DNA from: a virus
Lineage: Duplodnaviria; Caudoviricetes
Reading direction: 5' to 3' (one strand)
DNA: 56,241 nt
Virus record (IMG/VR): IMGVR_UViG_3300038825_000174
Span: 1 to 56,241 of that record
The translations under genes and the position numbers were made by a program. This document shows, in pieces, positions 21,929 through 51,836 of the stretch (the first letter of the stretch is position 1; each line of letters starts with the position of its first letter). The notes under the pieces were generated by a model, which was not told the origin of the DNA, ran no database searches, and was given only the letters and a program-made list of their open reading frames with translations.

Positions 21929-22808
21929 CACTTCCGTATGTTTTTCCTTTAGCCATACCACCTACTTTGTACTTTACTGTCATACCACCTGCTGCATAGC
22001 CCTTCTTCTTCATGCCACCACGAGCCATACCCTTCTTTTTCATCATGCCACCTTTTTGAGCATAACCCATTTTGTTTCGTACAGTAGTGGGTAACTTCTT
22101 GAGTCCAGTTTGATTAGCTGCAGGTTTCTTGAGTCCACCCATAGCCATACCTTTCTTCTTCATCATAGCTCCTCCACGAGCCATGCCTTTCTTTTTCATC
22201 ATAGCACCACCTTTAGCCATGCCTTTTTTCTTCATCATACCACCTTTAGCTTTAGCCATACCCTTCTCCTTTGCAAGTTTTCTAACTAATTCTACACGTT
22301 CTCTATCTTCTTTGAGTTGCTTCTTTTCATAAGCTTTCATATCCTGATCTTTAGTCTTAGGAACATTTTTAGAAGGATCATATCCCTTCATCTTTGTTTT
22401 AGTTATAGCTCCTCTTACATTAGCTTTGTCAAAAGCTCTTGCAGCTACACCATCTACTCTAGATTGTAAAGCTTCTAGTTGTTTTCTTTGTGCTGATGTC
22501 AACTCTGAGTTTTTCTTTAGAGCCAATAGCTCTGCTACAATCTGTCTTTCCTTCTTTGCTGCTGAAGCATATGTTATTTTATCTTTAGTTGTGGGTGCTT
22601 TTTCTCCTGCGTCTTTACCTTTGTTAGCATCCCTCATTCTCTTTCGTGCTGCAGATCCTTCAGTTGAAGGTCTTCCCTCTGCACGGAAAGCACTAAACCT
22701 CATACCCTTTAGACTGTTCATAAATTTACGAACCTTTTGCCCCAATGCATTCATTCTTTCTTTTGAGATGCCTTTACCTTGTGGCTTTTTTAATTTAACT
22801 CTACTCAT
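21906..22808 (-). CDS. Highly basic protein with C-terminal (M)MKKKGMAxGG repeats
   Basis: K/R/M/G-rich; repeats visible at DNA level at ~21960-22270. Confidence 0.7.
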   Translation of the reverse strand: MSRVKLKKPQGKGISKERMNALGQKVRKFMNSLKGMRFSAFRAEGRPSTEGSAARKRMRDANKGKDAGEKAPTTKDKITYASAAKKERQIVAELLALKKNSELTSAQRKQLEALQSRVDGVAARAFDKANVRGAITKTKMKGYDPSKNVPKTKDQDMKAYEKKQLKEDRERVELVRKLAKEKGMAKAKGGMMKKKGMAKGGAMMKKKGMARGGAMMKKKGMAMGGLKKPAANQTGLKKLPTTVRNKMGYAQKGGMMKKKGMARGGMKKKGYAAGGMTVKYKVGGMAKGKTYGSVDNRKKK

Positions 22809-23034
22809 TGTCAGTATCTCCTTTATCTTCTGACCATCCCTCGGCTCTCATTGAATCCTCTACGTGCTTTAATGTAAAGGATCTCCCATAATGAGCTTCT
22901 ACTGCTGCCTTCACGTAGAATACATCACTATGAGGTATGTGGAGCTTGTCCAAGTTGTTATTGATTACGTGTTTATAAAACTCTTCAATAACATTATCTG
23001 TGTATAGTTTTACGGATTTTTTTCCCATTGTCAA
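22801..23034 (-). CDS. Hypothetical protein, first gene of the leftward arm
   Basis: LHIPHSDVFYVKAAVEAHYG; start codon uncertain. Confidence 0.5.
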   Translation of the reverse strand: MTMGKKSVKLYTDNVIEEFYKHVINNNLDKLHIPHSDVFYVKAAVEAHYGRSFTLKHVEDSMRAEGWSEDKGDTDNE

Positions 23035-23195
23035 TTATTTTTTTGGAAAGTACGGAGAATGCCTATTACCGTACATTTAAATGTATCATATAAGTGTTAA
23101 TTTATTTTTAATGAATAAACATTTAAGTGTATCACTTTATATGTCATCTTAGAACTAGTTATATATAATTATAACAGATTCTGTGAGTATGTCAA
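23005..23195 (-). promoter_or_regulatory. Two leftward sigma70-like promoters
   Basis: TTGACA-N16-TATAAT (23168-23195) and TTGACA-N16-TAAAAC (23007-23034). Confidence 0.6.
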
Positions 23196-23627
23196 TATGC
23201 AATCTCAGCCAATTCAGTCAAATATTTGGCAGCAGCAGTTTCATATATACAAAAGTGGTTAACATTCAAAAATCCTAATCTGTGTATTTATACAAGCATA
23301 TAACGCCAGTACCCCTAGGTGTCCCCTGCCTGTAAGGCAGTCATGCAGTCTTATGATTCGAAGACTTGGTCAAGATCAGAAACAAGCAAATCACTACCAT
23401 AGGTAGTGTAAGTTATTGAAATATAAGCATATATTTCTAATAAACAACTGTTATCACATCAGTTGCAAGCAACTGTAGCTTCTTAAAATCTTCAATTCCC
23501 AGAGAATTGAGTAAAATTAGAGTGCCGATGCATGGTTTAGTTGGTACAACTAACCTACCCCAACATTGGGACAACTTATATATCCTCATTTTTATTTACA
23601 CCATGAAATGGGTAAATGTAAATAAAA
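23035..23627. other. Divergent non-coding region, probable genome termini / packaging-end region
   Basis: Largest intergenic gap; separates the two transcription arms; GC cluster at ~23309-23340 in an AT-rich context. Confidence 0.5.
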
Positions 23628-23642
23628 ATGAGGATTAATATA

Positions 23643-24317
23643 ATGTCAAATCAAACAGCAAAAGCTTTCGAAACTTTCACTGGTACTCTCGAAGAGAGAG
23701 GTTCTGTTCTAGCGAAGCTAGAGAAACAGAGAGTAACTAGCCTTGAGAAGGCTAACACTAAAGACGTAGTCTTTAATGGTTTAGCTTATCAACTGGGACA
23801 GTTGATCCATGAACTCACTCTAGAGAGTGACTCTGGTCGAATAACTTCAGATAGGTTGCAAGCAACCTCGATGAACAAAGTTGCTTCTCAGAGAAGAAGC
23901 GAAGCTTTACAGCTTTACAGAAACTTTGATGCCATTCAAGAATGGCTCAAGGGAAGAGTTGTCAAGAAGAGAAAGCAGAAGATTGCTTTCACTTCTCTAA
24001 CAGCAATGCTGAAAGCATTCAAGTTTGAAACTCAACCTAAGGTTGAGAAGACAGATGATAAATCATCTGCTACACCATCAACTAAGGTTGATGAAAAGCC
24101 CAACGTTGGGACTACTCAACCAAAGGCTGAAACACAAGATGCTAAAGCATCTGATACTCAACCTAAGGTTGAGAAAGTGAGAGTTCCACAGAACTCTAAA
24201 GAGTTTGCTGACTACGTTCACAAACTAGTTATCAAATTTGGATTTGATAAAGATGAAGTTCTTGAAGCTATCTTTGATAGCTTTGAGAATAAAACAGCTA
24301 AAAAGAGAGTAGCTTAA
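23643..24317 (+). CDS. First early protein, basic, with TQPKVEK repeats
   Basis: ORF 23628-24317; GAGGA RBS favours ATG 23643; ends in a 9-bp hairpin (24305-24328). Confidence 0.7.
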   Translation: MSNQTAKAFETFTGTLEERGSVLAKLEKQRVTSLEKANTKDVVFNGLAYQLGQLIHELTLESDSGRITSDRLQATSMNKVASQRRSEALQLYRNFDAIQEWLKGRVVKKRKQKIAFTSLTAMLKAFKFETQPKVEKTDDKSSATPSTKVDEKPNVGTTQPKAETQDAKASDTQPKVEKVRVPQNSKEFADYVHKLVIKFGFDKDEVLEAIFDSFENKTAKKRVA

Positions 24318-24348
24318 TTGCTACTCTCACTTTAATCGGAGATTAAAC

Positions 24349-24423
24349 ATGAATACATTTGAAGACATCTTTGGATGTCTTGCCATATTTATTGGCTTGA
24401 CAATCTTATTATATGTAACCTAA
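24349..24423 (+). CDS. Small hydrophobic peptide (24 aa)
   Basis: GGAG RBS; MNTFEDIFGCLAIFIGLTILLYVT. Confidence 0.45.
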   Translation: MNTFEDIFGCLAIFIGLTILLYVT

Positions 24424-24968
24424 TATATTTATTCACTCAGTATGAGTGAAGTAAATAAATATATTAGTCAACAACAGTCCCAACATTGGGACACAACTTA
24501 ACGGAGTTAAACATGAAAAAAGTTTCTGCATTAATTGATGAAATCAATAAAGGTTTGCCAAAGAAAAAGATATCTTATGGATATCTTGGTAACGTTTATT
24601 TTTCCAAAGGAAAACAGGTTGATGATACCTCTTGGAGAATCTTTGTGCCACCTACAGAAAGAGAGGTGGTAACACGGACATATAAATCACGTATAGAAGG
24701 ACAGGAAGGTCTTGAAAAGACCTACACTACTTCTGTAGGCTCTGCTCCTTACGGAGATAGCATTGGTGGTTTCCACAGAGCAGATGCCGAAGAGCATTGT
24801 CTTTCTATACTAGAAAGATTAATGAGTGGTGAAACTCTTAGAACAAATAGTGGAGCAGACTTTAAACTGTAATATATTTATTCACTCAGTATGAGTGAAG
24901 TAAATAAATATATTACTTGGATTGAAACAGTCCCAACGTTGGGACACTTTAACGGAGTTAACATGAAA
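24421..24968 (+). repeat. Duplicated ~100 bp leader module (hairpin, palindrome, RBS, ATG)
   Basis: 46-nt identical TAATATATTTATTCACTCAGTATGAGTGAAGTAAATAAATATATTA at 24421 and 24870, each followed by ACAGTCCCAAC.TTGGGACAC and TTAACGGAGTTAA(A)CATGAAA. Confidence 0.9.
24513..24872 (+). CDS. Early hypothetical protein
   Basis: GGAG RBS before ATG 24513 in ORF 24486-24872. Confidence 0.65.
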   Translation: MKKVSALIDEINKGLPKKKISYGYLGNVYFSKGKQVDDTSWRIFVPPTEREVVTRTYKSRIEGQEGLEKTYTTSVGSAPYGDSIGGFHRADAEEHCLSILERLMSGETLRTNSGADFKL

Positions 24969-25640
24969 GTTAGATTTACAAAAATGTCTGCCAACCGAAA
25001 GGTTGGTAAGATGACTGTGACAACTACAGAGAGACAGTCCTGTCCTGATGCCTGTCCATTCAAAGGGAATGGATGCTATGCCGATGGCTTCCCATTGGCA
25101 GGTGTTTGGAACAGAGTTCCAGATGAAGGTCATGATTGGGACACTCTGTGTGACAGAGTGGAGCATGAAGCCACAGATGTGTGGAGACATAATCAGGCAG
25201 GAGATTGTCCAAAGGACAAGCACAATCCTGAGTTGATTGATGCTCCAAAAATGCTACAGCTTGTTCATGCTAATAAACGTGGGAACAAGAAGGGCATGAC
25301 CTATACACATTACAGTATGGCTTATAGCCATAACAGAAATGTGGTCAAAAAAGCCAACAGTAATGGTTTTACCATTAACTTGTCTGGCAATAACCTAAGT
25401 CATGCAGATGACTTGTTTGATCTTGGTATAGCACCAGTTACCACTGTGCTACCTATTGATCAGATGACTAACACGACTACTCCCAAAGGGAGAAAGGTTG
25501 TAGTCTGTCCTGCTGTCATCAAAGATGACGTGTCTTGTATGACTTGCAAGTTGTGTTGGAAACAGCGTGATGCAATCGTAGGTTTCCCTGCACATGGAAA
25601 CAGTAAACAAAAAGCAAATGGAGTTGCAAATGCAGAGTAA
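24963..25640 (+). CDS. Cys-rich early protein (DUF7227-like; possible metal or Fe-S binding)
   Basis: CPDACPFKGNGCYA, WRHNQAGD, TYTH, GFTINLS, CPA...C..C.LC. Confidence 0.6.
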   Translation: MKVRFTKMSANRKVGKMTVTTTERQSCPDACPFKGNGCYADGFPLAGVWNRVPDEGHDWDTLCDRVEHEATDVWRHNQAGDCPKDKHNPELIDAPKMLQLVHANKRGNKKGMTYTHYSMAYSHNRNVVKKANSNGFTINLSGNNLSHADDLFDLGIAPVTTVLPIDQMTNTTTPKGRKVVVCPAVIKDDVSCMTCKLCWKQRDAIVGFPAHGNSKQKANGVANAE

Positions 25641-25773
25641 CAGTAACTTTGAAAAAGTTAAAAAGAAACCAGACAGTCCCAACGTTGGGACAGATAGAAG
25701 AGCCAAACACTCTCTCCTCAGAGAGAGAAGGCTTGTCCGTAAACTTAGACTACGTCAGAAGGGAGTAGCTTAA
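25630..25773 (+). CDS. Small basic early protein (47 aa)
   Basis: Read manually; GGAG RBS, TAATG coupling to the next gene; contains one palindrome copy. Confidence 0.5.
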   Translation: MQSNSNFEKVKKKPDSPNVGTDRRAKHSLLRERRLVRKLRLRQKGVA

Positions 25774-26147
25774 TGGATAAAAATGTTAGGACATATTGGA
25801 ATTTGCATGGTGGTCTGTGGTCTATCATGGATAGACAGACAGGCTTAGTCATAGGCAGACAGCCAGAACTGTTCCTATTGGTGGGCAGGTTTAATGTCCG
25901 TCAAGGTGGCAGACAGCGTGTACTTCTCGAAGGGAAGAAGAACGTCCATGCATTTGCAGAGGGATGGTATCCAGAGGTCTGGATTAGTCCCAAGTTCTAC
26001 CATGATGAGGGTAGGTCTGTGACCTACAATCCTTACAAGAACGATACCTTTGTCTATGTAGACAATGGTGAACCTGTTGGCGAGGTAGGTTCTATCTGGC
26101 TAACAACTACGGCTGAAGGCAAACCTTCAGTTAAAGTATACAGTTAA
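25773..26147 (+). CDS. Conserved phage hypothetical protein
   Basis: YWNLH, GRQRVL.E.KKNVHAF and YNPYK motifs. Confidence 0.65.
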   Translation: MDKNVRTYWNLHGGLWSIMDRQTGLVIGRQPELFLLVGRFNVRQGGRQRVLLEGKKNVHAFAEGWYPEVWISPKFYHDEGRSVTYNPYKNDTFVYVDNGEPVGEVGSIWLTTTAEGKPSVKVYS

Positions 26148-26155
26148 TATAATAC

Positions 26156-26184
26156 TTGATACTTTAGTGAAAGTATTATATAAC
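26156..26184 (+). promoter_or_regulatory. Sigma70-like early promoter inside an inverted repeat, with a palindrome just downstream
   Basis: TTGATA-N17-TATAAC; palindrome at 26203-26218. Confidence 0.5.
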
Positions 26185-26241
26185 TGTTCACATAACTCAA
26201 CAGTCCCAACGTTGGGACACAACACAGAAAGGAGCATTACC

Positions 26242-26556
26242 ATGCTTACATTTAACTTTGACAATCTTCCAAAGGGAGAAAAAATCTCTGGTGGTTTTAC
26301 TGCCGTAAAATTAATTGCTACAGCTATCAAGCTAAAGCTACAAGGCTACAAGCCTGTGATCTACAGGAATGACAACATCCAAGAAACTGGATGGTTTATC
26401 CGTAAGGGTAAAGGTGGCAAGTCTGGTGAGCCTTTGGTTCGCTTGAACTTTGGCAAGTCCTACTCTTCCTTCCATGCCTATGATAGGAAGGGCAAGCGAA
26501 GAGTGGCAAGCTATGTGCCTATCAAGTCCTTCTTGATACAGAAGAAGGTAGCCTAA
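26242..26556 (+). CDS. Basic early hypothetical protein
   Basis: AAGGAG RBS before ATG 26242. Confidence 0.6.
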   Translation: MLTFNFDNLPKGEKISGGFTAVKLIATAIKLKLQGYKPVIYRNDNIQETGWFIRKGKGGKSGEPLVRLNFGKSYSSFHAYDRKGKRRVASYVPIKSFLIQKKVA

Positions 26557-26999: not shown

Positions 27000-27168
27000 A
27001 AATTATGATGACTTTAAGGATAAAGTCTATGAACACAGATCCAAGCTACGTGGTATGCTCAAGCTACTCAAAGGTATAAAACCTTTGGAGTCTGAGGTCA
27101 CGAAAGCTTATAATATAATTAATGCAATTGAACAGGAGAGAACTGATGCAGAAAAAAATAGTGGTTAG
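26989..27168 (+). CDS. Hypothetical protein (59 aa)
   Basis: Read manually: MMIKNYDDFKDKVYEHRSKLRGML...; fills the gap before the methyltransferase. Confidence 0.45.
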   Translation: MMIKNYDDFKDKVYEHRSKLRGMLKLLKGIKPLESEVTKAYNIINAIEQERTDAEKNSG

Positions 27169-28240
27169 TCTATGTGGTGGCACAGACAGTGCCTACCTCT
27201 CATGCCTTGACGCAGGTATTGATGTATCACCTGATGGTGAATACGAGTACCACACATTTGAGACAGACAAGTATGCTAGTGCTGTATCAAGATACAGGAT
27301 ACCTCATGCTATACATCATGGTGATGCCAATGGTTGGGATAAACTAAAAGGTAGAGATGTCTTTCTGCTTATAGCAGGTTTCCCTTGTCAGCCTTATTCT
27401 GTGGCAGGTAAACAGCTTGGCACTTCAGATAGTCGTGACTTATCTGAGGTTATGTATCAGGCATTGGAAGGATTGAACCCTGAGTTCTATCTGTTTGAGA
27501 ATGTCGAGTCCAAAGCCAAGCATGAGTGGTACAAGCGTATTAGTGCCATACGTCCAGATGCACAGATGCGATCTCACAACAGTGGCAAGGTGTCAGGACA
27601 GGAGAGAAAGCGTGTCTACATAACTAACTCACCACATGACGAGTTGGCTGACATGGGCATCGTACTCAATGATGTGCTAGAAGATGGTGCTATGGCAGAT
27701 AGAGATAAGTCCTACTGCATTGATGCCAACTACTTCAAAGGTGGTAGCATGAAGATGTACTACGAGAAAGCACGTAGGCAGATAGTCTATGTGCAAGGTG
27801 AGAAGATTGCTCTCAAGTCTAAGAAGTGTAGACAAGTTGGCGAAGCTGATCTCAAAGGCTACGACATCATCAAGCGTGTGTATAGTAGGTGGGGCAAGAG
27901 TCCTACCCTGACTACCATGCAAGGTGGATGGCGAATGCCCAAGGTAGAGTGTGACAATTGGATAAACCAAACCACTTTACTAAAAGACAATGCAGATGTG
28001 GACGAACTTTTTTGGAGAGCATTAACACCTTTAGAATGTGAACGTCTACAGACTTTGCCTGATGAGTGGACACAGTATGGAGACTTTTATGAGTACGAAG
28101 AAATAGAGATGCCTTACGAAACTGTCACACACAGAGTTCGTAAGACTAAACGTATATCAAACAGCCAACGCTACAAGATGATCGGCAATGGCTTCACTCG
28201 TGCAGTGATCTCGCACATATTAGAAGGAGTATATACATGA
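27146..28240 (+). CDS. DNA (cytosine-5) methyltransferase
   Basis: Catalytic GFPCQ, ENV, Q.R.R.Y, RALTPLECERLQTLPD and GNG motifs; GGAG RBS before ATG 27146. Confidence 0.88.
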   Translation: MQKKIVVSLCGGTDSAYLSCLDAGIDVSPDGEYEYHTFETDKYASAVSRYRIPHAIHHGDANGWDKLKGRDVFLLIAGFPCQPYSVAGKQLGTSDSRDLSEVMYQALEGLNPEFYLFENVESKAKHEWYKRISAIRPDAQMRSHNSGKVSGQERKRVYITNSPHDELADMGIVLNDVLEDGAMADRDKSYCIDANYFKGGSMKMYYEKARRQIVYVQGEKIALKSKKCRQVGEADLKGYDIIKRVYSRWGKSPTLTTMQGGWRMPKVECDNWINQTTLLKDNADVDELFWRALTPLECERLQTLPDEWTQYGDFYEYEEIEMPYETVTHRVRKTKRISNSQRYKMIGNGFTRAVISHILEGVYT

Positions 28241-30552: not shown

Positions 30553-31407
30553 ATGGCTTTAGATTTTACAAACAACGCACTTGGAGAACTTCCAATTTAT
30601 TTAGACTTTACTACACGTACTGAGCCTACACGTATGGCAGGTAAGAAGTACGTCATCAACAATGATACTGATGAGGTCATTGGTATTGTTGGTAGCAAGT
30701 TCAACTCTGTTACACACAAAGAGTTCTTTGATAAGGTGTGCAGAACTATGTCTGAACAGCTTGGTGATGAAGCAATGGAAGGTGCAAATGTAAAGTGGAA
30801 CAATGCACGTAATGGTGCATTCGCTATGCTTGACGCAACCCTACCTGCGACTAAGGCGTTAATCACGACTGATAAGCAACAGACAGAAATATCACAAAGA
30901 GTGATAGCTCTGCATGGTGTGGATGGTTTATGTTCTAACCAAGTATTCTTTGGTGCAATAGATTTCTTCTGCACAAATGGTATGATCAGAGGTGAGCATG
31001 ACAAGGTGCGAAGAAAGAACACTACTAACTTCAGCATGTCTGCCTTTATTAAGGAGCTAGAGGATGCTAACAGTGACTTCTATTCACAGGCTGAACAGCT
31101 ACAGGAGTGGGCAAGAACACCTCTTGAGTATAACTCAGTGAGAGATATGCTTCACTCTCTCATGGGTTCTGAGAAGAAAGGTGATAAGATGCTTGGCTTG
31201 TATGCACAAGAGGTACAAACAAGAGGACACAATGCCTTTGCTCTGTACTCTGCATTCACTAACTATGCATCATATGCAGATGAGAGAAATGGTTTCAAGC
31301 TACGTAACACAGGCAATGATACCAATGCTATCAGCATGTGGGGACGTGAGCAGGAAGTTACCAAGTGGGTATCATCAAAGCAGTTCAAAGAACTGGTTGC
31401 TGCTTAA
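30553..31407 (+). CDS. DUF932/DUF945-like protein
   Basis: GIVGSKF..V.H, HG.DG..S, FFCTNGM and ALYSAFTNYASY motifs; AGGAG RBS. Confidence 0.65.
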   Translation: MALDFTNNALGELPIYLDFTTRTEPTRMAGKKYVINNDTDEVIGIVGSKFNSVTHKEFFDKVCRTMSEQLGDEAMEGANVKWNNARNGAFAMLDATLPATKALITTDKQQTEISQRVIALHGVDGLCSNQVFFGAIDFFCTNGMIRGEHDKVRRKNTTNFSMSAFIKELEDANSDFYSQAEQLQEWARTPLEYNSVRDMLHSLMGSEKKGDKMLGLYAQEVQTRGHNAFALYSAFTNYASYADERNGFKLRNTGNDTNAISMWGREQEVTKWVSSKQFKELVAA

Positions 31408-32492
31408 TGAAGCTACCTCGCTACATGTATAAGAGGTACACACCTAAGGGGGATCGGACATTCAGGTTCAGTCCCCCTCGTCAACTTATTGACAGTGGTG
31501 TTGTATGTCGCAGAGAACTTGGTAAAAATTTTAATGAAGCAAAAAAAGTTGCAGATGAATTAAACAAATTGATAGATGAATATCGTGAGGAAATGCTGAC
31601 AGAGTCTGTGGTCACACGATCTACAACCCTGTCAGAATTATGTGACATATATCTTTTGTCTAATGATTTCAATGCTTTACGTGACTCAACTAAAGCTGAT
31701 TACATCTACTTTATTAAGATACTTTGCCTAGATTTAGGTGAGAAAAAGTGGCATACTATATCTAGTAGGTTGGCTAAGAGGACTTATGAACTCTGGGTCA
31801 GACGTGGTGTGTCACTTGCAAACCATGTGTGTAGTATTGCATCACGGATATACAACTATGCGACTGAGATGGAGTATGGGAATCACAACCCATTCTCTAA
31901 CATTAGACGTAAGTCTACCAAACCCAGACGTGTAGTGTGGGCAAAGGAACATGTGCGTCAATTTCTTGACTATGCTTATGCCAACTATGAGTACAGGAGC
32001 ATTGGCTTGATAGTGCAGATGGCATATGAGTGGTGTCAGAGGATAGGTGATATGCGTTTGCTCACTTGGAATGACCTTGACATGGACAAGGGTATGCTCA
32101 CATTAGAGCAGTCCAAGCGTAGGTCAAAGGTGTTTCTGCCTATCAGTGACAGCTTGTATGACATGTTGTATGAACAGCAGGGTGACTTTGGCTTTCAACA
32201 GTACGTAGCTCCCAATGTAAGCCCCATACAGGGCGAGTACAAGCCTTATGGGTTGGAGAGTGTATCAAAGATTGCAAAGCGTGTCATGAAGCATTTAAAC
32301 CTGCCTGATGAACTCCGACTTATGGATCTCAGAAGGACAGGAGTTACAGAAATGATTGACAGTGGAGTCCCAATGGGGCAACTTATGTCAGTGACAGGTC
32401 ACACAAATGTACAGTCTGTCAAGCCGTACATGAAACACACTTATGAGAGTGCTAAGAATGCTCTCAACACAAGGAGTAAATATAATGCATAG
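31407..32492 (+). CDS. Tyrosine recombinase/integrase
   Basis: Catalytic R (QRIGD), K (QSKR), MDLRR in place of HxLR, TGH, and Y (KPYM); TAATG-coupled start at 31407. Confidence 0.85.
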   Translation: MKLPRYMYKRYTPKGDRTFRFSPPRQLIDSGVVCRRELGKNFNEAKKVADELNKLIDEYREEMLTESVVTRSTTLSELCDIYLLSNDFNALRDSTKADYIYFIKILCLDLGEKKWHTISSRLAKRTYELWVRRGVSLANHVCSIASRIYNYATEMEYGNHNPFSNIRRKSTKPRRVVWAKEHVRQFLDYAYANYEYRSIGLIVQMAYEWCQRIGDMRLLTWNDLDMDKGMLTLEQSKRRSKVFLPISDSLYDMLYEQQGDFGFQQYVAPNVSPIQGEYKPYGLESVSKIAKRVMKHLNLPDELRLMDLRRTGVTEMIDSGVPMGQLMSVTGHTNVQSVKPYMKHTYESAKNALNTRSKYNA

Positions 32493-42469: not shown

Positions 42470-42539
42470 GAACGGCATTAGAGATATTAATGACTCTTTG
42501 AAAAAACTACGGAGACTCTTTCCCATAGAGAAAAAGTAG
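42249..42539 (+). CDS. Small coiled-coil protein (probable start at internal MELEKE); last gene of the + arm
   Basis: GAGGA RBS before MELEKEAK; overlaps the convergent ORF by 33 nt. Confidence 0.45.
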   Translation: MHLFMERFATPIVPTLCYIESGNVALTQPIMITYIEDEMELEKEAKAFMDRRSREPKTMFELLTEMNYKLKECENGIRDINDSLKKLRRLFPIEKK

Positions 42540-45500
42540 TTGTAAATCTTGTAGCTTTAGATTCTTCAAAGCTTGCTCTTTGTCATCTGCACTTAAATCC
42601 TCAAACTCAGGTAAAGCTCTCTCTAGATATTCACTTGTGAAATCAAAGGGAGATCTTTCCTCTTCTTCCACAAATCTAAACCATCCCTTTGACCTCTGGT
42701 TCTTTGATAGTCTTCTGTAGTCAGTCATAGACTGATACTCTAATACCTTTTGTGGATCATCTAGTGCCACAAGACTATCAGTTGGATTTCTAAAAAGATC
42801 TATCTGATCTTTAATATATTTCTTCACATTATCTTTTATATACTTTTCTTTGCTGATACCTGTGTCTATCAGCCCAAGTATTCTACCACCACCTATCTGA
42901 GATAACTCTCTCTGGTTAGCATCATACATGCTACCCCATAATGCTTCTAGTTCAGTGGCTTCTTCTACTATGGATGGTAGGTTCTCCCTGATTGACTTGT
43001 TCTCAAAGTTTCTTACGGTTGGTATTCTAGATCTACTACTCACATCCCACTTATCAAATCCCAAAGACTTTAATTTTTTACCCTCTTCACTATCAGCAGT
43101 GTACATGTTAAGACCCAGTGCAACCTTGGCTAGTGGTGCAACACGTCTTCTTTCTTCTTGGAAAGGATCTTCTTTTTTAGGCAATGCACTCTCATCTACC
43201 ACTGCTCCAAAAGGATCATACTTTCTAAATGGCTTAACAAAGCCCTCTATGAATGCATCTGTACCACTCACAATCTCAGGATCTTTGGCTGTTTCTTTGT
43301 ATGCAAGCCCTCTCATGCCTAATGCTCTTTGTGTATCTAGCACCTGATTCAAAGGCACAGCAAATGTAGATAAGTAATCTCCTAATATCTGTCCTGAGTT
43401 TCTTCCCCACCATTCATCATTGGTCAAGTCCTGCTCATTGAACAAAGATGCAGCTTCATCTACTAGATTACCTGCCACACCAGTTCTGAAGCTAGTTCCT
43501 AGGAATGTCTCAGCCCACTCTCTTCTATCAAATGTCTGAAAGAATGCTTCTTTACCACCAGATAGCCAATCAGTCTGCTCAGAAGCTCTATAGTATTCAT
43601 TTAATATCTTGCCCAAGAAGAAGAACTGTCTAAGAGGAAATAGTGGTGTTACATCCAGAACTGTACCATCACCTACAGGTACAAGTTTATAGTCCTCTCC
43701 TTGTTGGTCAGTTTCCTGTAGCATCATAGATGCAGCCATGACACCCAATGCACCTGTTGTGTTACGTGCTATCATACGATGCTCTCTTGCTGTTAGACCA
43801 TCTCCAAATCTCTTTGCTCCATATCCTGTAAGACCGTATATTCTTCTTGTTAATGGCATGAAAGCACCTACAGAGTTCTCAGCCATTAGTTCCATGCTCT
43901 TTGCCATAAATCTAGGGAACGGTATGATTACTGTAAGATTGTTTTTTGTTATAAAGTTAGCAAAGGCTTTACCAAATGGTGACTCAGGTGGGTTAGCATA
44001 AGTTAAATCTAAGGCTCTTTCGGTGGCTTCTGCAAATATCTCTGTTGCTGTTACACCTAATTGATCTTTGCCATCTACCACCTTAAAAGTAGGATTAAGA
44101 TCTCTAGCATCATTCATTAGATCATCTAGTCTGCCACTGTTTAGTACCTCTATTAGATCTATATCCCACTTCTGTCTGAACAGACGCTGTGCTTCACCCA
44201 TAAATATACCACGTCTTAGCATAAAGTCTTGCCAACGATTTGGTTTGTTAAGTAACTGTGTAAAATCTTCTGCCTTTGATATAAGCTTATCAAAAGTAGT
44301 ATCACTACCTCTACCTGTGGCTAGTTGTATCTCGTTAATTGTGTTAAACATTCTGTCAGAAAAATCTTGTAGCTTTGGGTGGGCTACCAGATCAGGATTA
44401 TCAGGATCACCTAATAAAATATCTGTAAATTCTTTTGCTGTCTTTCTGTCAGAGTATATGTATCGCATACCTGCAAAGCTATCAGTCCATGTAGTTTTCT
44501 TTATCAATCTATTCTTACCACTAAAGAAGTTACCATTGGCTATATCCATAGTGGCTGTTTCTATTATATTATTTAATGCTTCTACAGGAGTACGGAGTAG
44601 ACCTGACTCTAAGTTTCTGGCAGCAGTTGCTATCTGAGACACAAGAAGACCACGTCTTACATTCTCTACTCTTCTAAACCACTGAGCAGTTCTGTTCTGA
44701 TTCCTTAACATTTCATCTAACTCGTCTTGTTGCTTCTGACTCTTGGGCTTTACTCTCTTGGCTAACTGTGAATACTTATTTAGTATCTTACCTGCCTGAC
44801 TTGCAGAGCCTAGGTGCATGAGAGTGAAGTCTTCAAAGGACATACCTGCCTTATCTAGTGCATCAAACAAAGGATGATCTCCACGCAGTGTCAAGTCTCC
44901 TCTAGTGACAGAGTCAAATATGTTTTCCATAACTGACTTCTTTACTGTCACTCTTCTCTTCTTACCAGTTTTCTGATCTCTTATAGTTATCTTCTTTTTG
45001 TCTTTCCACATACTAGGATTGGCATCTCTTAGTTCTTTAGCCACGACTGTGAGAGCTTCAATGTTTTCAACCTTTAAAACTCTATCAAACAATTCGTTTA
45101 TATCATACTTGTCCTCTACCCCCTTTTCTATGTATATACTTTGGGGCATCCTTGGGTCTTGTCTGGTTGCTAACTTACTGTTTGCAGTGTCAACTTCATC
45201 TATCTTTTGTACAGATAAATTCTTTGCAGCTTCTAGCTTTGTTGGGTCTAGTATTCTCTTGCCACCCTTGACTGTGGTTATTGTTATATACCCACTATCT
45301 CCCCTGATAAAGTCTTTGTTTATGCCTAAATTATCTTCAAACTCTTCTACCAGTTCGTTGTGTATCTTTACCTCTGACTTTACAACCTCTTTGTTTTCTT
45401 TTATTTTCTTTTGCTTTACCTCTGTCTGCTTTGCCTTTATTTTCTGCACATTTTCACTAATCTTCTTTGCTTTCTTTACAGTTTCTTTTCCAACTTTTGC

Positions 45501-46613
45501 ATTATTTATTATCTCTTCAACTTCTGCCCCATCTTCTGCTATAATTTTACCATTATTATCTATACGTTCCATAGTTTCATCAGATACTTTGCCTGTTTTC
45601 TTCTGCTCTAGTTTAGCATCTTCTATGGCTATCTTTTTATCTTTTACTGCACCAAATACTTTGGCTATTTTATCTCCTGCATAGGTTAATGGGACTCCAA
45701 ATACTATACCCTCTCCTGCCCCTTTGAGTCTTTTTACAGCCAAGCTGTCATCATCCTGTCTTGCTATGTACTCTGACATATTGGTGTCAAATACACCATC
45801 CAAAAATGATACACCTAAGTCTGTCATTAATGTTTCTTCTGGATCAAAAAATGCTGCACCCACTATGGCTTCTTTTAAAAATAGGTTTTTGTACCCATGA
45901 TTACCAAGCTTTGTTAGTTTGCCTGTGATTCCATACCCTGTAGCAAACTGTGTAATTCCCTCAGTTAATCCACCTAAAACAGATTCTGTTTCTGCAGTTT
46001 CAAATCCTAAGGCTGTAACAGCATTGTCTCTAAGCTCATCAATTTTATTTGATGTCTTATATAATAGAGGTGCATTCTTTATCTCCTCACCATACTGTTG
46101 TTTTAGTTGTTTATATTCGCTAGGAGATATATAATCTGGTATTTGAAACAAGTCCATAAGGTCAAAGCCCTTTTTGCCCTTATCTTCAAAATTTAGTGTC
46201 CCTAAATATTCATAAGATGCTTTGTCTATATCACCTATTGTTTGAGCTAGTTCTGCCACAGCACTAGGTACACCTCTTATACCACCTTTTATCATATCTC
46301 CAACATAATCAGTAAAGCCCCACTCCTCATCTTCAGGAGCAAGCTCTGTCTTCTGTTCTGTTGTAGTTTTTGTGGGATCTATTTGGGCATGATCACCCAT
46401 AGTGTCTTGTGGAGTTACACTCGTATCATTGAGGTCATTTCCAGTAGACTCTCCTTCTAGTATACTAGCTATATATTCATCATTACTTTGCCTTTTTGTA
46501 GGTTGTAATTGTCTAGGTAATTCTGGTTGTTGCTCTGAATCCTGTGACTGAGAAACATCACCACCTAGCATACTCGCTATGTAGTCATCATTTTGTTGTT
46601 GTTGTGGGTTCAT
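42507..46613 (-). CDS. Large internal virion (ejection) protein, 1368 aa
   Basis: Size, helical composition, PFPRF motif, last of the internal virion gene block. Confidence 0.6.
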   Translation of the reverse strand: MNPQQQQNDDYIASMLGGDVSQSQDSEQQPELPRQLQPTKRQSNDEYIASILEGESTGNDLNDTSVTPQDTMGDHAQIDPTKTTTEQKTELAPEDEEWGFTDYVGDMIKGGIRGVPSAVAELAQTIGDIDKASYEYLGTLNFEDKGKKGFDLMDLFQIPDYISPSEYKQLKQQYGEEIKNAPLLYKTSNKIDELRDNAVTALGFETAETESVLGGLTEGITQFATGYGITGKLTKLGNHGYKNLFLKEAIVGAAFFDPEETLMTDLGVSFLDGVFDTNMSEYIARQDDDSLAVKRLKGAGEGIVFGVPLTYAGDKIAKVFGAVKDKKIAIEDAKLEQKKTGKVSDETMERIDNNGKIIAEDGAEVEEIINNAKVGKETVKKAKKISENVQKIKAKQTEVKQKKIKENKEVVKSEVKIHNELVEEFEDNLGINKDFIRGDSGYITITTVKGGKRILDPTKLEAAKNLSVQKIDEVDTANSKLATRQDPRMPQSIYIEKGVEDKYDINELFDRVLKVENIEALTVVAKELRDANPSMWKDKKKITIRDQKTGKKRRVTVKKSVMENIFDSVTRGDLTLRGDHPLFDALDKAGMSFEDFTLMHLGSASQAGKILNKYSQLAKRVKPKSQKQQDELDEMLRNQNRTAQWFRRVENVRRGLLVSQIATAARNLESGLLRTPVEALNNIIETATMDIANGNFFSGKNRLIKKTTWTDSFAGMRYIYSDRKTAKEFTDILLGDPDNPDLVAHPKLQDFSDRMFNTINEIQLATGRGSDTTFDKLISKAEDFTQLLNKPNRWQDFMLRRGIFMGEAQRLFRQKWDIDLIEVLNSGRLDDLMNDARDLNPTFKVVDGKDQLGVTATEIFAEATERALDLTYANPPESPFGKAFANFITKNNLTVIIPFPRFMAKSMELMAENSVGAFMPLTRRIYGLTGYGAKRFGDGLTAREHRMIARNTTGALGVMAASMMLQETDQQGEDYKLVPVGDGTVLDVTPLFPLRQFFFLGKILNEYYRASEQTDWLSGGKEAFFQTFDRREWAETFLGTSFRTGVAGNLVDEAASLFNEQDLTNDEWWGRNSGQILGDYLSTFAVPLNQVLDTQRALGMRGLAYKETAKDPEIVSGTDAFIEGFVKPFRKYDPFGAVVDESALPKKEDPFQEERRRVAPLAKVALGLNMYTADSEEGKKLKSLGFDKWDVSSRSRIPTVRNFENKSIRENLPSIVEEATELEALWGSMYDANQRELSQIGGGRILGLIDTGISKEKYIKDNVKKYIKDQIDLFRNPTDSLVALDDPQKVLEYQSMTDYRRLSKNQRSKGWFRFVEEEERSPFDFTSEYLERALPEFEDLSADDKEQALKNLKLQDLQLLFLYGKESP

Positions 46614-47836
46614 TGTTGTGGATTATATGTATCTAATGGATTTTCAGGAATGAATAATTGTATGCCTGTAGGATTTGCCTGAGTAGGCTCTGCAAAACCT
46701 CTAAATATTTCATACTTAGCCTGACCATTAACTATGTGCTTTACGACATCTCCTGCTTTTAGTGTTCTTTTGTCAACATCAGACATTACACGTAAATTTA
46801 TTAATTTTGGTTTGTTTACTTTTGTAGGATTACGATCTCTTTCTGCACCTTGTTTTATTCTTTGAAAATATTCTAAATTATATTCGTTTATTAATTGTGT
46901 ATTAGCATTCACAATAAGTTCATTCATGAAGGCTGCACTACCACCACTAATTGCATTTGGATTTTCAGGACTATATGCCTGTATTTCATTTTTCATGCTG
47001 TCTATACTTGTTAGGTAGGCTTCAAATGCTCTACCATAATTACCTGTAAATTTTTTCTGGACTCTGCCTAAATTATCACTAACTATAAGCTCTCCAAATG
47101 CACCTTTCTTAGCATCTTTTACTTTACGTAGTGCTAGAGACATATATCCTGATGCTAACAAACCTGTATTACCTGTTGTCTGTTCCATCTCAACATACTT
47201 CTTTGTTAGCTCTGTAATTAAATCTCTTTTCTGATTTACTAACTTCTGATTTTGTTCTACATTTGTACCTTTATCTATCAGTTGTTCAAGACGATATATT
47301 GAGTTATATTGATTCTCTATTTGCTTCTTAAATCCAACAGGATCACCTATAGATTCTAGTGCTTTAAGTTGGTCAGATATCTCTGTTCTGTATGGATTCT
47401 TATATACCTTGCCCTCTAGTCTTGCATCCAATAAGTTACTCTGAACATAGTTTACAGCACCACCCTCTATATCTTCTGGACTAAAGTTCTGTCCAAAGGT
47501 AACATTTAGTGAAGAGCCAAAGTCTATATCGTTGTCATTAGCAATTTGTTTAAGATTTCGTAGCCTTTCTACATTAGCCATGCCACCTGACATGTTTGCA
47601 GCTATTTGATTTTCATCTAGACCTAAAGCTGATAAAGCTTCTTGCACTTCTACAAGTTTATCTAACTGATCAAATCTTCTTCTTTTATACAATAAATCTA
47701 CTGCATGTTGTCTACCTGCTGCAGCTTCTGCAGATCTGGCTGCCCTGTCTCTTTCTCTCTGCTCTCTATCTAGACCCTCCTGTATGGTCTTAGATGCACC
47801 ACCTGCAGCTAATCCTAACGCTGTTAAAAACTTCAT
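46610..47836 (-). CDS. Putative internal virion protein
   Basis: Gly/Ala-rich N-terminus followed by coiled coil; synteny. Confidence 0.5.
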   Translation of the reverse strand: MKFLTALGLAAGGASKTIQEGLDREQRERDRAARSAEAAAGRQHAVDLLYKRRRFDQLDKLVEVQEALSALGLDENQIAANMSGGMANVERLRNLKQIANDNDIDFGSSLNVTFGQNFSPEDIEGGAVNYVQSNLLDARLEGKVYKNPYRTEISDQLKALESIGDPVGFKKQIENQYNSIYRLEQLIDKGTNVEQNQKLVNQKRDLITELTKKYVEMEQTTGNTGLLASGYMSLALRKVKDAKKGAFGELIVSDNLGRVQKKFTGNYGRAFEAYLTSIDSMKNEIQAYSPENPNAISGGSAAFMNELIVNANTQLINEYNLEYFQRIKQGAERDRNPTKVNKPKLINLRVMSDVDKRTLKAGDVVKHIVNGQAKYEIFRGFAEPTQANPTGIQLFIPENPLDTYNPQQ

Positions 47837-47837
47837 C

Positions 47838-48344
47838 CTACTGTTCCCTTCTTGTCATCAAACCCATTGGTGGCTGTTCTGGTGGTTGCTCTGGCTGTGG
47901 TTGTGGAGCAGGTTCTTCTGCCCCCTTCATTGCTTTTAGCTTACCCTGCTTTCTAGCTAGTGCTATAGTTGCAGGACTAATCTCTCCAGTTTCTTCTCTC
48001 TCCATGCCACTCTTGAATGGCACTTGATTAGCTTCAGCCATGTTGGACATAAGTTCTACAAGTATAGGTATTACAAGCATACCCACATCAATACTGTGCT
48101 TACCTTCCATAACAGATGCCAGTTGCATAGTGTTGGCAAGCGTTGTCAGTGGCACACCTAATTCTATAACGGTTAATAGCTCTGGTGCAAAGTCTGGATC
48201 TTCTAGCTTTTGCACATAATATTCCATAGCTTGTTCTACTGTAGCCATTTGTGGTGGTTGTTGCCAAGGTCTACCACCTAAAGGTGCAGTCATTCCCATT
48301 CCCGGAATAGGAGCATCCATTTGTATTTGTCTATCATCAGCCAT
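47838..48344 (-). CDS. Conserved virion-associated protein
   Basis: APIPGMGMT..LG.RPWQQPPQ, G.HSID motifs. Confidence 0.55.
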   Translation of the reverse strand: MADDRQIQMDAPIPGMGMTAPLGGRPWQQPPQMATVEQAMEYYVQKLEDPDFAPELLTVIELGVPLTTLANTMQLASVMEGKHSIDVGMLVIPILVELMSNMAEANQVPFKSGMEREETGEISPATIALARKQGKLKAMKGAEEPAPQPQPEQPPEQPPMGLMTRREQ

Positions 48345-48561
48345 CTTGCTTATACTTCTCTCTTATTCTTCTAATAGCCTGTACATAAGACGCAACTTTA
48401 TCCATAACGTCTTGTTTTGCTTCAGGTGCTGTTGGTGTTTGTTTACTAACTAATCCTCTGGTAGCTTTTGACTCTAGCTCCATAGGTTTTTGCCTATTGA
48501 TTATTGCTTCCAAGTTTAAGCAAGCATCTACGGCAGGGTTTGTTGGGCTGTATCTGCTCAT
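48337..48561 (-). CDS. Hypothetical protein
   Basis: Coupled ORF in the operon. Confidence 0.5.
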   Translation of the reverse strand: MSRYSPTNPAVDACLNLEAIINRQKPMELESKATRGLVSKQTPTAPEAKQDVMDKVASYVQAIRRIREKYKQDG

Positions 48562-50555
48562 ATTGGTAATAACTTTCCTAATATGCTGTCAGATCCTGCA
48601 GTCAGGAATGTACCTATTAGACTACCAAAACCTACAGCACTATCATAATCTGCTTTCATCTCTGTCAACTCCTTAGATGTTTCAGATTGTAGCTGTGCTA
48701 TTGCCATCTGCACAATTCTCTGTCTTTCATTCTCAGAACTTTCCCATGACATTTCCATAACGTCATTGTAATAGTTCCACAAGTTATTGTATGCACTGTT
48801 TGACATGTTGAGTAATGCAGTAGCATTAAGTTCATTAGCTCTGTTAATAGCTGTAGTATCAGCAGTAGCTATCTCTCTTCTCCACTGTGCATTGTTCTGA
48901 TCTATAATTAACCTGTTCTTTGAATTAAACTGATCACGCTGATTCTGCATCTCTTTATTAAACTTCTCCATTGCATTCTTCTCACCTGCATTAAACTGCT
49001 TGTGAGCATTTTGTTGGGCAGCATTGAACTGAGATGTTTGAGTTCTTAGATTTGCAAAGAACTGATCTACCTGATTCTGACTAGTAGCATTAAATTGTTT
49101 TGCTGCATTTTCTGCAGCTTGATCATTAAACAGAGCAGTCTGCATTGACTGAGCCTTGAATAACTCTGTCTGTTGTTTATTAGAGAGGTTAGCCATATCT
49201 AATTGCAAGAAGTTTTGTGCATTCATAACCTGTGCTTGTTGTCTATTGTTTAAATTAGCCATATCCATGTTAGCTAATGCACTTGCTTCTGTCATTATAA
49301 GAGCTTGTCTATTGCTTAGATTAGCAAGCTCCATAGTGTTTACAGCCCTACTATTCTCTAATATGACTTGTTGCTCTGCATTAAAGTTCATGTTAGCTAT
49401 GTCACTAACTTTTGCAGCATTCATAACCTTGGCTTGAAATGCTTGGTCAAACTCCATGCCCATAAATTCAGCACGTTGTTGGGCAGCAAGCATGGCACGT
49501 TGTTGTCTGTTGGATAAGTTTTGTGCTTCAAAGGAAGCTATAGTTTTTGCATCGGCTGATGCAATAGGTAGGGCAGACTCTAGGGCTGCCTGAACCATAG
49601 CCTGTCCTGCAATACTAGATGCTCCCATACCTCGTTGAGCCATTGCAGCTTGAACACCTCGTAATGCTCCTGCCGCCCATGCAGGTGGGTTCTTTGCATC
49701 AAAGTCTGCTGTAAGGTTGGCTAGTTGTCCTTGTACGGTAGCTTTCTCTGATGGTGTGGCAGTAGCTGCCTGTACTTCTTCTGTAAACTTAGATGCTTTC
49801 TCTGCATTAGCTACAGGGTCTACTTTTTCACCTATCTCAAGCTCTCTCTTTGCAGGGCTGTTTATTATATGTGCCTTACCTTCAGCAGCTTCTAGACTGC
49901 CAACTAAAGATTCAGTAGCTTCTTGTGCAGTTACCTTTGCTCTTACATCATCTGGATTTGTTTGGGCAGCTTCTAGTGCTTTGTTTACACTGTCTACCTG
50001 TGTAGCCTTTTGATCTGCATCATAGGTTCTTGCTTCAGCTTCCTTTGTTGGAAAAGGAAAAAATCCTGATCTAAATTCTGCTGATTCTGCTGACATTGGT
50101 CCTGTGGAAAGTGGTCTAGCATAAAAGTCATATTTAGGATTAGGATTAAAGGCTGTAGCTGTAGAAGCAAATGTAGGTGTAGTAGCTGTGCCTGTAGGTG
50201 TAGTGCCTAGCTTGGATGCCCTAGGATCTATGTCTTGATCTGGAGATGTAGGCACACCAAATGGATTTACCATAGCACCTTTTGGCATCTTAGGATCTGT
50301 GACTCGTTTAGCTGTTACGTCTGTAATAGTAGTTTTCTTTGGTTTTTCAGGTGTAGTATCTCCACCCTCTTGCATCTTCTTTACATAACCACCCTCTACC
50401 ATCTTACGTGCCATGTCCTGATAACGCATCATTTCTGATTGTCTATCTGGATTGTCTTCTAAGAACTTTTGAAAGTCTTTTATATTGCCTTGAAACCCCA
50501 TAGCATTGGCTATCTTTTCCATGCCAGAGGGTTTAAATCCTTGAAATGTATTCAT
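48558..50555 (-). CDS. Putative internal virion / DNA-ejection (pilot-like) protein
   Basis: Q/N/A-rich NL.N.QQ and QFNA repeats; hydrophobic Gly-rich C-terminus. Confidence 0.6.
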   Translation of the reverse strand: MNTFQGFKPSGMEKIANAMGFQGNIKDFQKFLEDNPDRQSEMMRYQDMARKMVEGGYVKKMQEGGDTTPEKPKKTTITDVTAKRVTDPKMPKGAMVNPFGVPTSPDQDIDPRASKLGTTPTGTATTPTFASTATAFNPNPKYDFYARPLSTGPMSAESAEFRSGFFPFPTKEAEARTYDADQKATQVDSVNKALEAAQTNPDDVRAKVTAQEATESLVGSLEAAEGKAHIINSPAKRELEIGEKVDPVANAEKASKFTEEVQAATATPSEKATVQGQLANLTADFDAKNPPAWAAGALRGVQAAMAQRGMGASSIAGQAMVQAALESALPIASADAKTIASFEAQNLSNRQQRAMLAAQQRAEFMGMEFDQAFQAKVMNAAKVSDIANMNFNAEQQVILENSRAVNTMELANLSNRQALIMTEASALANMDMANLNNRQQAQVMNAQNFLQLDMANLSNKQQTELFKAQSMQTALFNDQAAENAAKQFNATSQNQVDQFFANLRTQTSQFNAAQQNAHKQFNAGEKNAMEKFNKEMQNQRDQFNSKNRLIIDQNNAQWRREIATADTTAINRANELNATALLNMSNSAYNNLWNYYNDVMEMSWESSENERQRIVQMAIAQLQSETSKELTEMKADYDSAVGFGSLIGTFLTAGSDSILGKLLPI

Positions 50556-50788
50556 CTGCTCTCTCTACTTAATACTCTATCTAGTTTATCTTCTAGTCTG
50601 TGTAGTGCTTCCATTACATGTTGCATCTCATCTCTAACTTCTGCTCGTGATGCATAGTCCTCTCGTGTTCTGTTTAGCAGTATGTCTATACGTTTTACCT
50701 CTGCCATCATGTTACGAAAAGCCCACACTGCAGGAGCTATGATGAGTGTCAACACTACGTTCCAAAATATTACTGGGTCTATTTCCAT
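50552..50788 (-). CDS. Small TM plus coiled-coil protein
   Basis: N-terminal TM; LNRTREDY and LEDKLD. Confidence 0.6.
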   Translation of the reverse strand: MEIDPVIFWNVVLTLIIAPAVWAFRNMMAEVKRIDILLNRTREDYASRAEVRDEMQHVMEALHRLEDKLDRVLSRESR

Positions 50789-50789
50789 A

Positions 50790-51257
50790 TTACTTCTTAA
50801 ATTTATCGTTGAGTGAGTCCACTACGCTGTCTATATTAGGCTCTTTACCGAAAGGATCATATTTGCAACGATACTCTGTAGGACACTGACCTTCAACCAC
50901 TAGCGTATATGTATCGTTTGCTCCTTTATATAAACAGACTTGTTGTCCGTTCTTGGCTTGCACTCTTTTGTATCTACGGCAAGTTATATACTTTGGGTCT
51001 TCACGTATGCCTAGTCTTTTCTCTTGCTCCCATGTCCAATCGCTAAACTTCTTGAGAAAGCAGGTGTAACAGTTCTTGATGTTGTCTGATTGTGCTAGTG
51101 TTATGATTCCGTTGTCTGCACAAAGCCACTCAAACGTATACTGTCCACCATCTTTTCTTACGCAGTTACCACCAACCTCTGTCGAACCCCATAAGACCGT
51201 ATACAAACCCACCCAAAACACTAACACCAATAGCAAGAACCACTGCCAATACGACAT
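50790..51257 (-). CDS. Cys-rich putative secreted or membrane-anchored protein (start uncertain)
   Basis: Hydrophobic N-terminus, eight Cys. Confidence 0.45.
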   Translation of the reverse strand: MSYWQWFLLLVLVFWVGLYTVLWGSTEVGGNCVRKDGGQYTFEWLCADNGIITLAQSDNIKNCYTCFLKKFSDWTWEQEKRLGIREDPKYITCRRYKRVQAKNGQQVCLYKGANDTYTLVVEGQCPTEYRCKYDPFGKEPNIDSVVDSLNDKFKK

Positions 51258-51830: not shown

Positions 51831-51836
51831 TTTATC

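Follow-up and report, generated by a model that had tools for sequence, protein, structure and literature searches.

Long AT-rich hairpins in the early region of an HMO-2011-type podophage are selected structures that may act in the early messenger RNA

In phage T7 it is the host polymerase that transcribes the early genes, and N4-type hairpin promoters consist of a 5–7 bp stem and a 3-nt loop with conserved loop bases. T4-type phages have a hyperplastic early region in which, according to the available portion of PMC2839356, repeated composite intergenic motifs termed PeSLs flank small variable genes, and this arrangement resembles the one described here. We analysed virus record IMGVR_UViG_3300038825_000174 over its whole length of 56,241 bp (the window; 100% complete by CheckV), which is the genome of an HMO-2011-type podophage whose DNA polymerase shares 66% identity with that of Puniceispirillum phage HMO-2011 and 64% with those of Roseobacter phages CRP-345 and CRP-1. 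Its structural genes are read leftward (1–22808 and 42507–56055) and its early/replication genes rightward from 23643 onward, and the start of the rightward operon holds four long AT-rich hairpins (H1–H4) together with a repeated GC-rich stem-loop, P. The long hairpins are real, selected structures, and most likely they act in messenger RNA rather than as hairpin promoters. The explanation we favour, tentatively and at a little under an even chance, is that H1–H4 are cis-acting RNA hairpins of a rightward early transcript, serving in its processing, stability and translation control, and also as recombination joints.

H1 (23582–23635, plus strand) lies in the leader of the first early gene. 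It comprises a 19-bp outer stem, a 4-bp inner stem, a GAA loop and a GUAAA bulge on the 3' side, and additional pairs enlarge it to 23570–23647 (29 bp with the extension). H2 (24421–24466, plus strand) has 11 + 8 bp, a GUA loop and a GUAAA 3' bulge, and opens with the TAA stop of the open reading frame (ORF) 24349–24423. H3 (24870–24915, plus strand) is an exact 46-nt copy of H2 and opens with the stop codon of gene 24513–24872. RNA folding reproduced the positions and folds given for these three in an initial annotation of this DNA (outer stem, inner stem, triloop and 5-nt 3' bulge), with −23.5 kcal/mol and a z of −7.6 for H1 and −14.2 kcal/mol and a z of −5.3 for H2 and H3, and in both cases none of 200 shuffled sequences gave an equal value. 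An ungapped alternative for H2, with 18-nt arms that are 94% complementary, was 5.6 kcal/mol less stable, and the bulged fold therefore stands. The same annotation had regarded H1–H3 as three copies of one architecture with differing stems; the architecture holds for them, but H2 and H3 are identical and thus constitute one sequence family with no independent evidence, leaving two independent sequences.

H4 (26140–26187, plus strand) belongs to a wider type, class A, that is described below. It has a 17-bp stem with a 1-nt 5' bulge and a 13-nt loop with apical CTT-GA...TGA-AAG, and it occupies a cassette position like that of H2 and H3 but has neither GTAAA nor a triloop. Both the stop codon of gene 25773–26147 and the sequence TTGATA-N17-TATAAC are included in it. 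Only five hairpins in the 56-kb genome reach 17 bp or more, and H1–H4 account for four of these, all within 2.6 kb, whereas 40 first-order Markov simulations gave a chance expectation of 0.375 on average and 2 at most per genome. The fifth, at 54491–54555 among the leftward structural genes, has an irregular stem interrupted by three bulges and may be due to chance.

The palindrome of the P stem-loop, written GTCCCAACRTTGGGAC or CCCAACRTTGGG, has six sites, all between 23559 and 26218 (23559–26216 for CCCAACRTTGGG), compared with 0.18 strand-matches expected. All P sites are given on the plus strand. P1 (23559–23570) is a 12-nt core 11 nt upstream of H1, and P2 (24099–24110) is a core inside gene 23643–24317, where it encodes PNVG. 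P3 (24477–24492) is the full 16-nt stem-loop GTCCCAACATTGGGAC, 10 nt after H2, while P4 (24930–24945) and P6 (26203–26218) are 16-nt stem-loops lying 14 nt after H3 and 15 nt after H4, respectively. P5 (25676–25691) is a 16-nt element within a 47-codon Arg-rich ORF (25630–25773) and has an equivalent in CRP-345. Four of the six sites stand 9–12 nt before a ribosome-binding site (RBS) and two are inside reading frames (PNVG). After P3 and P4 there follows a Shine-Dalgarno (SD) mini-hairpin, TTAAC-GGA-GTTAA, at 24498–24510 (upstream of ATG 24513, with the SD in the triloop) and at 24949–24961 (upstream of ATG 24963), both on the plus strand.

The resulting cassette runs from the upstream stop codon and long hairpin through P and the SD mini-hairpin to the start codon, with H2, H3 and H4 each beginning at or containing the stop codon of the preceding gene. 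A palindrome adjoining every hairpin had been noted before, and the gaps of 9–13 nt (9–15 nt from H2–H4 to P) agree with this, but at H1 the order is inverted, with P1 first and the hairpin second. The cassettes are strand-oriented and flank variable genes. No cassette units were seen past 26.6 kb, where genes abut or overlap, and units of the same kind are present in the cultured phages CRP-1, CRP-345 and HMO-2011.

Conservation was examined in a comparison set of 11 + 23 + 9 viral-contig loci found by protein, P pattern hits and 80 metagenome loci, as well as the cultured HMO-2011, CRP-345 and CRP-1 (loci carry L numbers below). H1 has three additional variants in the close clade, in which the arms change in a matched manner (ATCCTCATTTTTATTTAC / GTAAATAAAAATGAGGAT versus ACTCCATTTTATATTTAC / GTAAATATAAAATAGGAGT). 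ATCCTC...GAGGAT becomes ACTCC...GGAGT in relatives, with matched indels, and the inner stem is CCAT/ATGG, CCCA/TGGG or CC/GG. The loop reads GAA, GTAA or TTTA, and these tetraloops in H1 homologues contradict the proposal of a conserved GNA triloop. Conservation of the GTAAA bulge is borne out in the three close-clade variants, all of which retain GGTAAA on the 3' side, but it does not extend to the wider family; nor does the shared architecture, since the loci L005, L007, L009, CRP-1, CRP-345 and HMO-2011 show other loops and bulges.

In H4, all 17 stem pairs are intact in 15 distinct sequences while the loop varies freely, and double changes occur at two positions, from AU to UA in four sequences and from AU to GC in one. 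With compensatory changes in the stems of both H1 and H4 in relatives, the structure is under selection, and the earlier suggestion of a cis-acting element is upheld. Of 258 loci, many of them unrelated or mutually overlapping, 30 contain the exact 46-mer of H2, in 20 distinct contexts. In 18 of these the TAA ends an open frame that is 35 codons long or more, P follows at 10–17 nt in all 20, and about eight different gene starts lie downstream. Gene content between the units varies among close relatives. Some cassettes in relatives have no hairpin (L002, 3969), and canonical terminators occur in other relatives (L005, L010).

Class A hairpins, H4 included, were present in all lineages sampled, among them CRP-1, CRP-345 and HMO-2011. 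They consist of a stem of any sequence (GC-rich in HMO-2011), a CTT/AAG closure and a loop of 11–13 nt that starts with GA and ends with (T/C)GA, and T-G-A and G-A-A are invariant in 20 distinct members. Across these 20, 11 of 13 stem pairs have changed on both sides and 90% of cells are paired, which none of 500 shuffles matched. The loop motif was on the gene strand in 14 cases and on the opposite strand in none, and the loop could form tandem G-A pairs plus two further covarying pairs (C-G, U-A, U-G). A covariance model of class A (R1) scored H4 at 50.5 bits, but H1 at only 14.1 and H2/H3 at 12.9 bits (E 3.7–7.5). The low scores of H1–H3 place the bulged GTAAA hairpins in a clade-specific sub-type outside class A; they share cassette positions with class A hairpins.

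The leader hairpins upstream of gene-1 homologues represent eleven distinct arm sequences. In minimum-energy folds the SD is fully within the paired 3' strand in seven (the window, L157, L158, L195, L007, L192 and L009), partly paired in three (L005, CRP-1 and CRP-345) and unpaired in one (HMO-2011). In the window, the SD GAGGA (23630–23634) is within the paired 3' arm of H1, 8 nt before ATG 23643, which confirms the earlier claim that H1 sequesters this RBS, and SD pairing recurs with unrelated arm sequences. Stems at the P6 site reach 9–11 pairs after extension, with two plus-strand G-U pairs each, in three variants. Outward extension of P over all unique variants gave 18 G-U versus 13 A-C, a difference that is not decisive alone and is clear only in the long P6-site stems. 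In HMO-2011 the two P copies share an asymmetric loop, ACAG, which is oriented alike in each, and the SD mini-hairpin covaries, being TTAAC/GTTAA in the window and AATAC/GTATT in HMO-2011 (AATAC-GGA-GTATT). Three features alone argue for RNA: pairing of the SD, the orientation of the loops and G-U pairing within P. The duplexes of H1–H4 (19 + 4 bp or 29 bp extended, 11 + 8 bp, and 17 bp) correspond to about two helical turns, and the position of the hairpins, in a leader or between cistrons, and their strand-specific features are compatible with an RNase III processing site.

We therefore favour cis-acting RNA hairpins arranged in a repeated module, in which the stop codon of the preceding gene opens a long AU-rich hairpin, followed 9–17 nt later by GC-rich P with its 4-nt loop, a GGA-triloop SD mini-hairpin and the AUG. 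By pairing with the SD, H1 would gate translation of the first early gene, and H2 and H3 would mark the 3' border of the preceding cistron. The mode of action is most likely post-transcriptional: a factor specific for double strands, host RNase III for example, would probably bind or cleave the bulged duplexes of about 20–29 bp, cleavage by this enzyme being proposed by likeness to the T7 early region. Their size and shape (19–29 bp, AU-rich, with an asymmetric 3' bulge) fit a substrate of a double-strand RNA nuclease, when set beside the T7 sites as generally known. After a cut, the upstream message would retain a protective 3' hairpin, the downstream message would begin near the P stem-loop and, in the case of H1, the SD would be freed. 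Since the repeat spans some 90 nt of the cassette, its units could also be homologous-recombination joints for swaps of early genes.

Several points weigh against this explanation. A single early RNA, its cutting by a nuclease, the location of the RNA ends and the role of P are all things that we infer, a look-up of RNA data sets for 22900–26400 having listed none that contains the sequence. Stem covariation is entirely Watson-Crick and would suit a hairpin in DNA, or a symmetric site bound by a protein, just as well, and H2/H3 is invariant in all relatives seen and so offers no covariation of its own. Once H1 is cut, its SD would still be inside a duplex of ~10–12 bp. P is conserved letter for letter, even in unrelated phage contigs of 55–57% GC, which a purely structural 5' stabiliser does not explain. 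Furthermore, the invariant TTGA of the class A loop and the TATAAC of the 3' arm also suit a nested promoter, and distant relatives have plain TTGACA-N17-TAnnnT promoters at the position of H4.

These last two points lead to a different reading, which we consider unlikely overall: a promoter nested in the hairpin, akin to a promoter-coupled terminator or a PeSL, with the loop as the −35 and the 3' arm as the −10 element of a host sigma-70-type promoter. Each cassette would then start a transcript just before P, and hairpin RNA would exist only in read-through transcripts, blocking or ending those. H4 and all its relatives retain TTGAnn-N16/17-TATAAC while the remainder of the loop varies, and TATAAC agrees with tANAWC within GCtANAWC, the −10 consensus for RpoD of Caulobacter (in the accessible part of PMC8144410), the cultured relatives being phages that infect alphaproteobacteria. 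At the position of H4 the distant relatives show TTGACA-N17-TATGGT, TATGAT or TAGGGT, with no hairpin or P, and in L010 a promoter comes after a canonical terminator. In other intercistronic hairpins of class A the sequence reads TTGAAT/TTGAGT-N16-TAAAAT, with hexamers assigned by eye. Overlapping promoter-terminator units are also described in bacteria and in T4-type phages, in the accessible portions of bioRxiv 10.64898/2026.08.19.745784 and PMC2839356, respectively.

However, the plus strand of H1–H3 offers at best TTTACA or TTCACT-N18-TAAATA, which lacks the final −10 T and was not reported by the promoter scan; for H2/H3 the scan reported a single match, TTCACT-N17-TATATT (9/12), and this belongs to the minus strand. 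A start ~7 nt past the hexamer in H1 would land within the SD, and the leader hairpins of L007, L192 and HMO-2011 have the apical motif but no −10-like hexamer at the right distance. A −35 element would also leave the invariant TGA-AA on the 3' side of the loop unexplained, and promoter-like sites numbered 21 compared with 25.6 expected from shuffles, AT-rich arms yielding −10-like hexamers by chance. From these motifs a nested sigma-70 promoter appears plausible for H4 only and not for H1–H3.

Less likely still is that the hairpin-P-SD units are mainly recombination joints, which persist through exchange of early cassettes, whether homologous or enzyme-targeted, and have little role in expression. 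The exact 46-nt H2 is found at 20 junctions with ~8 different genes downstream, gene content between units differs in close relatives, and hairpin loops or P variants tend to be alike per genome, which suggests concerted evolution. The phage encodes a tyrosine recombinase (31365–32492) and a T7-type endonuclease I, and recombination is the role proposed for T4-type PeSLs in the available text of PMC2839356. Nonetheless, homology alone needs no hairpin, and selection on the fold itself is evident from the compensatory changes and from pairing of the SD. H1 is moreover a single-copy leader element with no cassette upstream, and the hairpin bases have no conserved core site. Integron attC sites were rejected, as the hairpin bases (TAATATA.../...TATATTA, differing among H1, H2 and H4) carry no core sites when judged against the consensus as generally known, the window recombinase has no match more specific than the general Phage_integrase family, and the AAC/GTT letters are lost in variants of P.

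It is equally improbable, in our estimate, that hairpins, P and SD mini-hairpin together form a dedicated system of post-transcriptional control of the early operon across HMO-2011-type phages, with P bound by a trans-acting factor. P alters in concert within each genome (CCCAAYRTTGGG, CCCGAYRTCGGG, CCCGACAWTGTTGGG, GTCCAAYRTTGGAC and AGTCCGACAGCGGACT), and this, with its letter-level conservation, points to a sequence-specific partner. The leading candidate for this partner is the 47-residue Arg-rich protein of ORF 25630–25773. This Arg/Lys-rich ORF overlaps the end of the DUF7227 gene and has the P site in frame (SPNVGT). The P site is also within homologues of the Arg-rich ORF in CRP-345 (gp06) and CRP-1, and the L007 variant changes the peptide to PDVG. 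If such control exists, the Arg-rich protein on P would resemble an arginine-rich peptide bound to a hairpin, and the bulged hairpins would be switches opened by the P-binding factor or by RNase III.

An identical run of 17 letters, GTCCCAAYRTTGGGACA, stands 3–20 nt before RBSs in two viral contigs of 55–57% GC, at three loci (L054 and L063 on one contig, L081 on the other). Were P bound in this way, its occurrence before RBSs in these unrelated high-GC contigs would indicate a factor or host target common to phage lineages. The contigs encode SSB, Rad52 and AAA helicase and have no AT-rich hairpins. BLASTP at 1e-4 found no proteins shared between the ORFs of L054, L063 and L081 and the window, and Pfam places L054 in a different phage type, so that P as the companion of a protein shared with these contigs was rejected. 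An origin of P as a host repeat or CRISPR-repeat mimic was likewise rejected: a search with the exact 19-nt pattern in one genome per bacterial species gave 10 single-copy matches, mostly in Acinetobacter, with no arrays and no prophage. The spacing of P, judged by eye, does not fit a sigma-54 or extracytoplasmic function (ECF) promoter.

A DNA-level element, namely a cruciform or single-strand promoter for an N4-like virion RNA polymerase, a replication start, or the operator of a dimeric regulator, is very unlikely. In its favour, early genes are preceded by long AT-rich inverted repeats whose loops are short, the inner hairpin of H2 has an 8-bp stem and a 3-nt loop, covariation that is Watson-Crick only is compatible with DNA, and two large proteins, of 1320 and 1368 aa, belong to no assigned family. 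However, the 48 window proteins scanned gave no match to an RNA polymerase family, sigma factor or helix-turn-helix (HTH) regulator, and with no RNA polymerase gene detected, the hairpin-type promoter put forward by the initial annotation is not upheld. The two large proteins had no sequence match to solved structures in PDB at E <0.1, a sequence-level comparison, made with no fold search, that a very divergent enzyme could escape. The arms of H1, H2 and H4 differ, and one dimeric regulator therefore cannot read them all, and SD pairing, the strand-fixed loop motif and G-U pairs indicate RNA. Non-canonical terminators or attenuators lacking a U-tract and partitioning the early operon are similarly very improbable: the hairpins are stable stems directly after stop codons, and equivalent positions in L005 and L010 carry canonical terminators, but no copy has a U-tract (the tails read TAATATAATG, GTCAACAACA, CTTGGATTGA and TCACATAACT), none is among the 17 terminator-like sites of the scan, which also excludes ordinary intrinsic terminators, H1 sits in a leader rather than behind a gene, and some cassettes in relatives, such as that of L002 (3969), are free of the hairpin.

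The surrounding region contains further features. A divergent sigma-70-like promoter pair at 23141–23195, identified by consensus match only, has ATGTCA-N17-TATAAT on the plus strand (10/12) and TTGACA-N16-TATAAT on the minus strand (12/12), and the plus-strand match is a candidate origin for an early transcript with H1–H4. Directly 3' of gene 1, at 24305–24328, is a GC-containing, terminator-like 9-bp hairpin with a T-run on the minus strand only; the corresponding place in L005 is taken by a canonical terminator that has a T8 run. ORF 24349–24423 is a hydrophobic mini-ORF of 24 codons with its own SD (26 codons in the L005 counterpart), and inside it lies TTGACA-N18-TAATAT (10/12), with a predicted start within the 5' arm of H2. 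The rightward operon also encodes a C-5 cytosine DNA methyltransferase (27122–28240), and the tyrosine recombinase noted above is of the Phage_integrase family. A tRNA/tmRNA search of the window gave zero hits, and Rfam gave no matches at the gathering threshold, with only generic hairpin matches far below threshold in 22800–26400.

In the long leader of gene 1, the hairpin CAACTG-(9 nt)-CAGTTG at 23447–23467 is near letter-identical in all HMO-2011-type genomes inspected, with counterparts at ~2010–2032 in L005, ~860–885 in L243 (HMO-2011) and ~665–690 in L246 (CRP-1). A strongly conserved non-coding block at 23254–23305 reads GTGGTTAACA...CCTAATCTGTGTATTT...ATATA(A)CGC and is followed by a C-rich tract in relatives (L005 ~1815–1870, L243 ~640–710, L246 ~465–520); a genome end, packaging site or origin is a possible identity for it. 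At 23070–23135, in the control region between the leftward and rightward operons, the motif ACATTTAA(A/G)TGTATCA occurs two to three times, as it does in HMO-2011, CRP-1 and CRP-345, and each copy is a candidate operator or promoter.

Phages of the HMO-2011 type rank with the most abundant groups of marine viruses, and their gene expression is undescribed. The main comparative paper (PMC9038755), in its text exclusive of supplements, does not contain the words 'promoter', 'RNA polymerase', 'hairpin', 'intergenic' or 'early', and literature searches on HMO-2011 promoters, hairpins and terminators yielded no account of such elements by title or abstract. As the cassette is common to uncultured genomes and the cultured CRP-1, CRP-345 and HMO-2011, early-gene control, mRNA processing and cassette exchange can be tested at the bench, and the covariance model and motifs can be used to annotate early regions in marine viromes.

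Of the known systems, N4-type promoters as generally known are small hairpins with a 3-nt loop upstream of early genes, and the inner stems of H1 (4 bp) and H2 (8 bp), with loops GAA and GTA, can be set beside them, although H1 homologues have 4-nt loops (GTAA, TTTA). The hairpins here are much longer, lie at stop codons and in one case pair an SD, and a virion RNA polymerase was not detected in the window. Bacterial promoter-coupled terminators, in the available part of bioRxiv 10.64898/2026.08.19.745784, resemble H4 in that the stem-loop DNA also holds promoter parts. They differ in having a T-tract spacer and a −10 element downstream of the hairpin, whereas in H4 the −35 is in the loop and the −10 in the 3' arm, and H1–H3 have no convincing plus-strand hexamers. 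The T4-type PeSL also contains a stem-loop and, according to the accessible portion of PMC2839356, is proposed to drive modular shuffling, but its stem-loop is a G/C-rich terminator beside a strong sigma-70 promoter, unlike the long AT-rich hairpins without U-tract found here. A GC-rich stem-loop is here placed between hairpin and RBS, and any promoter would be nested inside the hairpin. In contrast to PeSLs, H1–H3 have no reported plus-strand promoter, the TTGATA-N17-TATAAC of H4 is nested and not adjacent, and there is no terminator.

The early RNase III sites of T7, as generally known, have a two-sided internal loop where H1–H3 have a pure 5-nt 3' bulge. The stems here are more AU-rich and are followed by P and an SD-presenting mini-hairpin, and there is no sequence similarity. 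In both systems, hairpins of about two turns that are asymmetric on the 3' side separate one podophage early gene from the next, and in both a copy in a leader could couple cleavage to translation.

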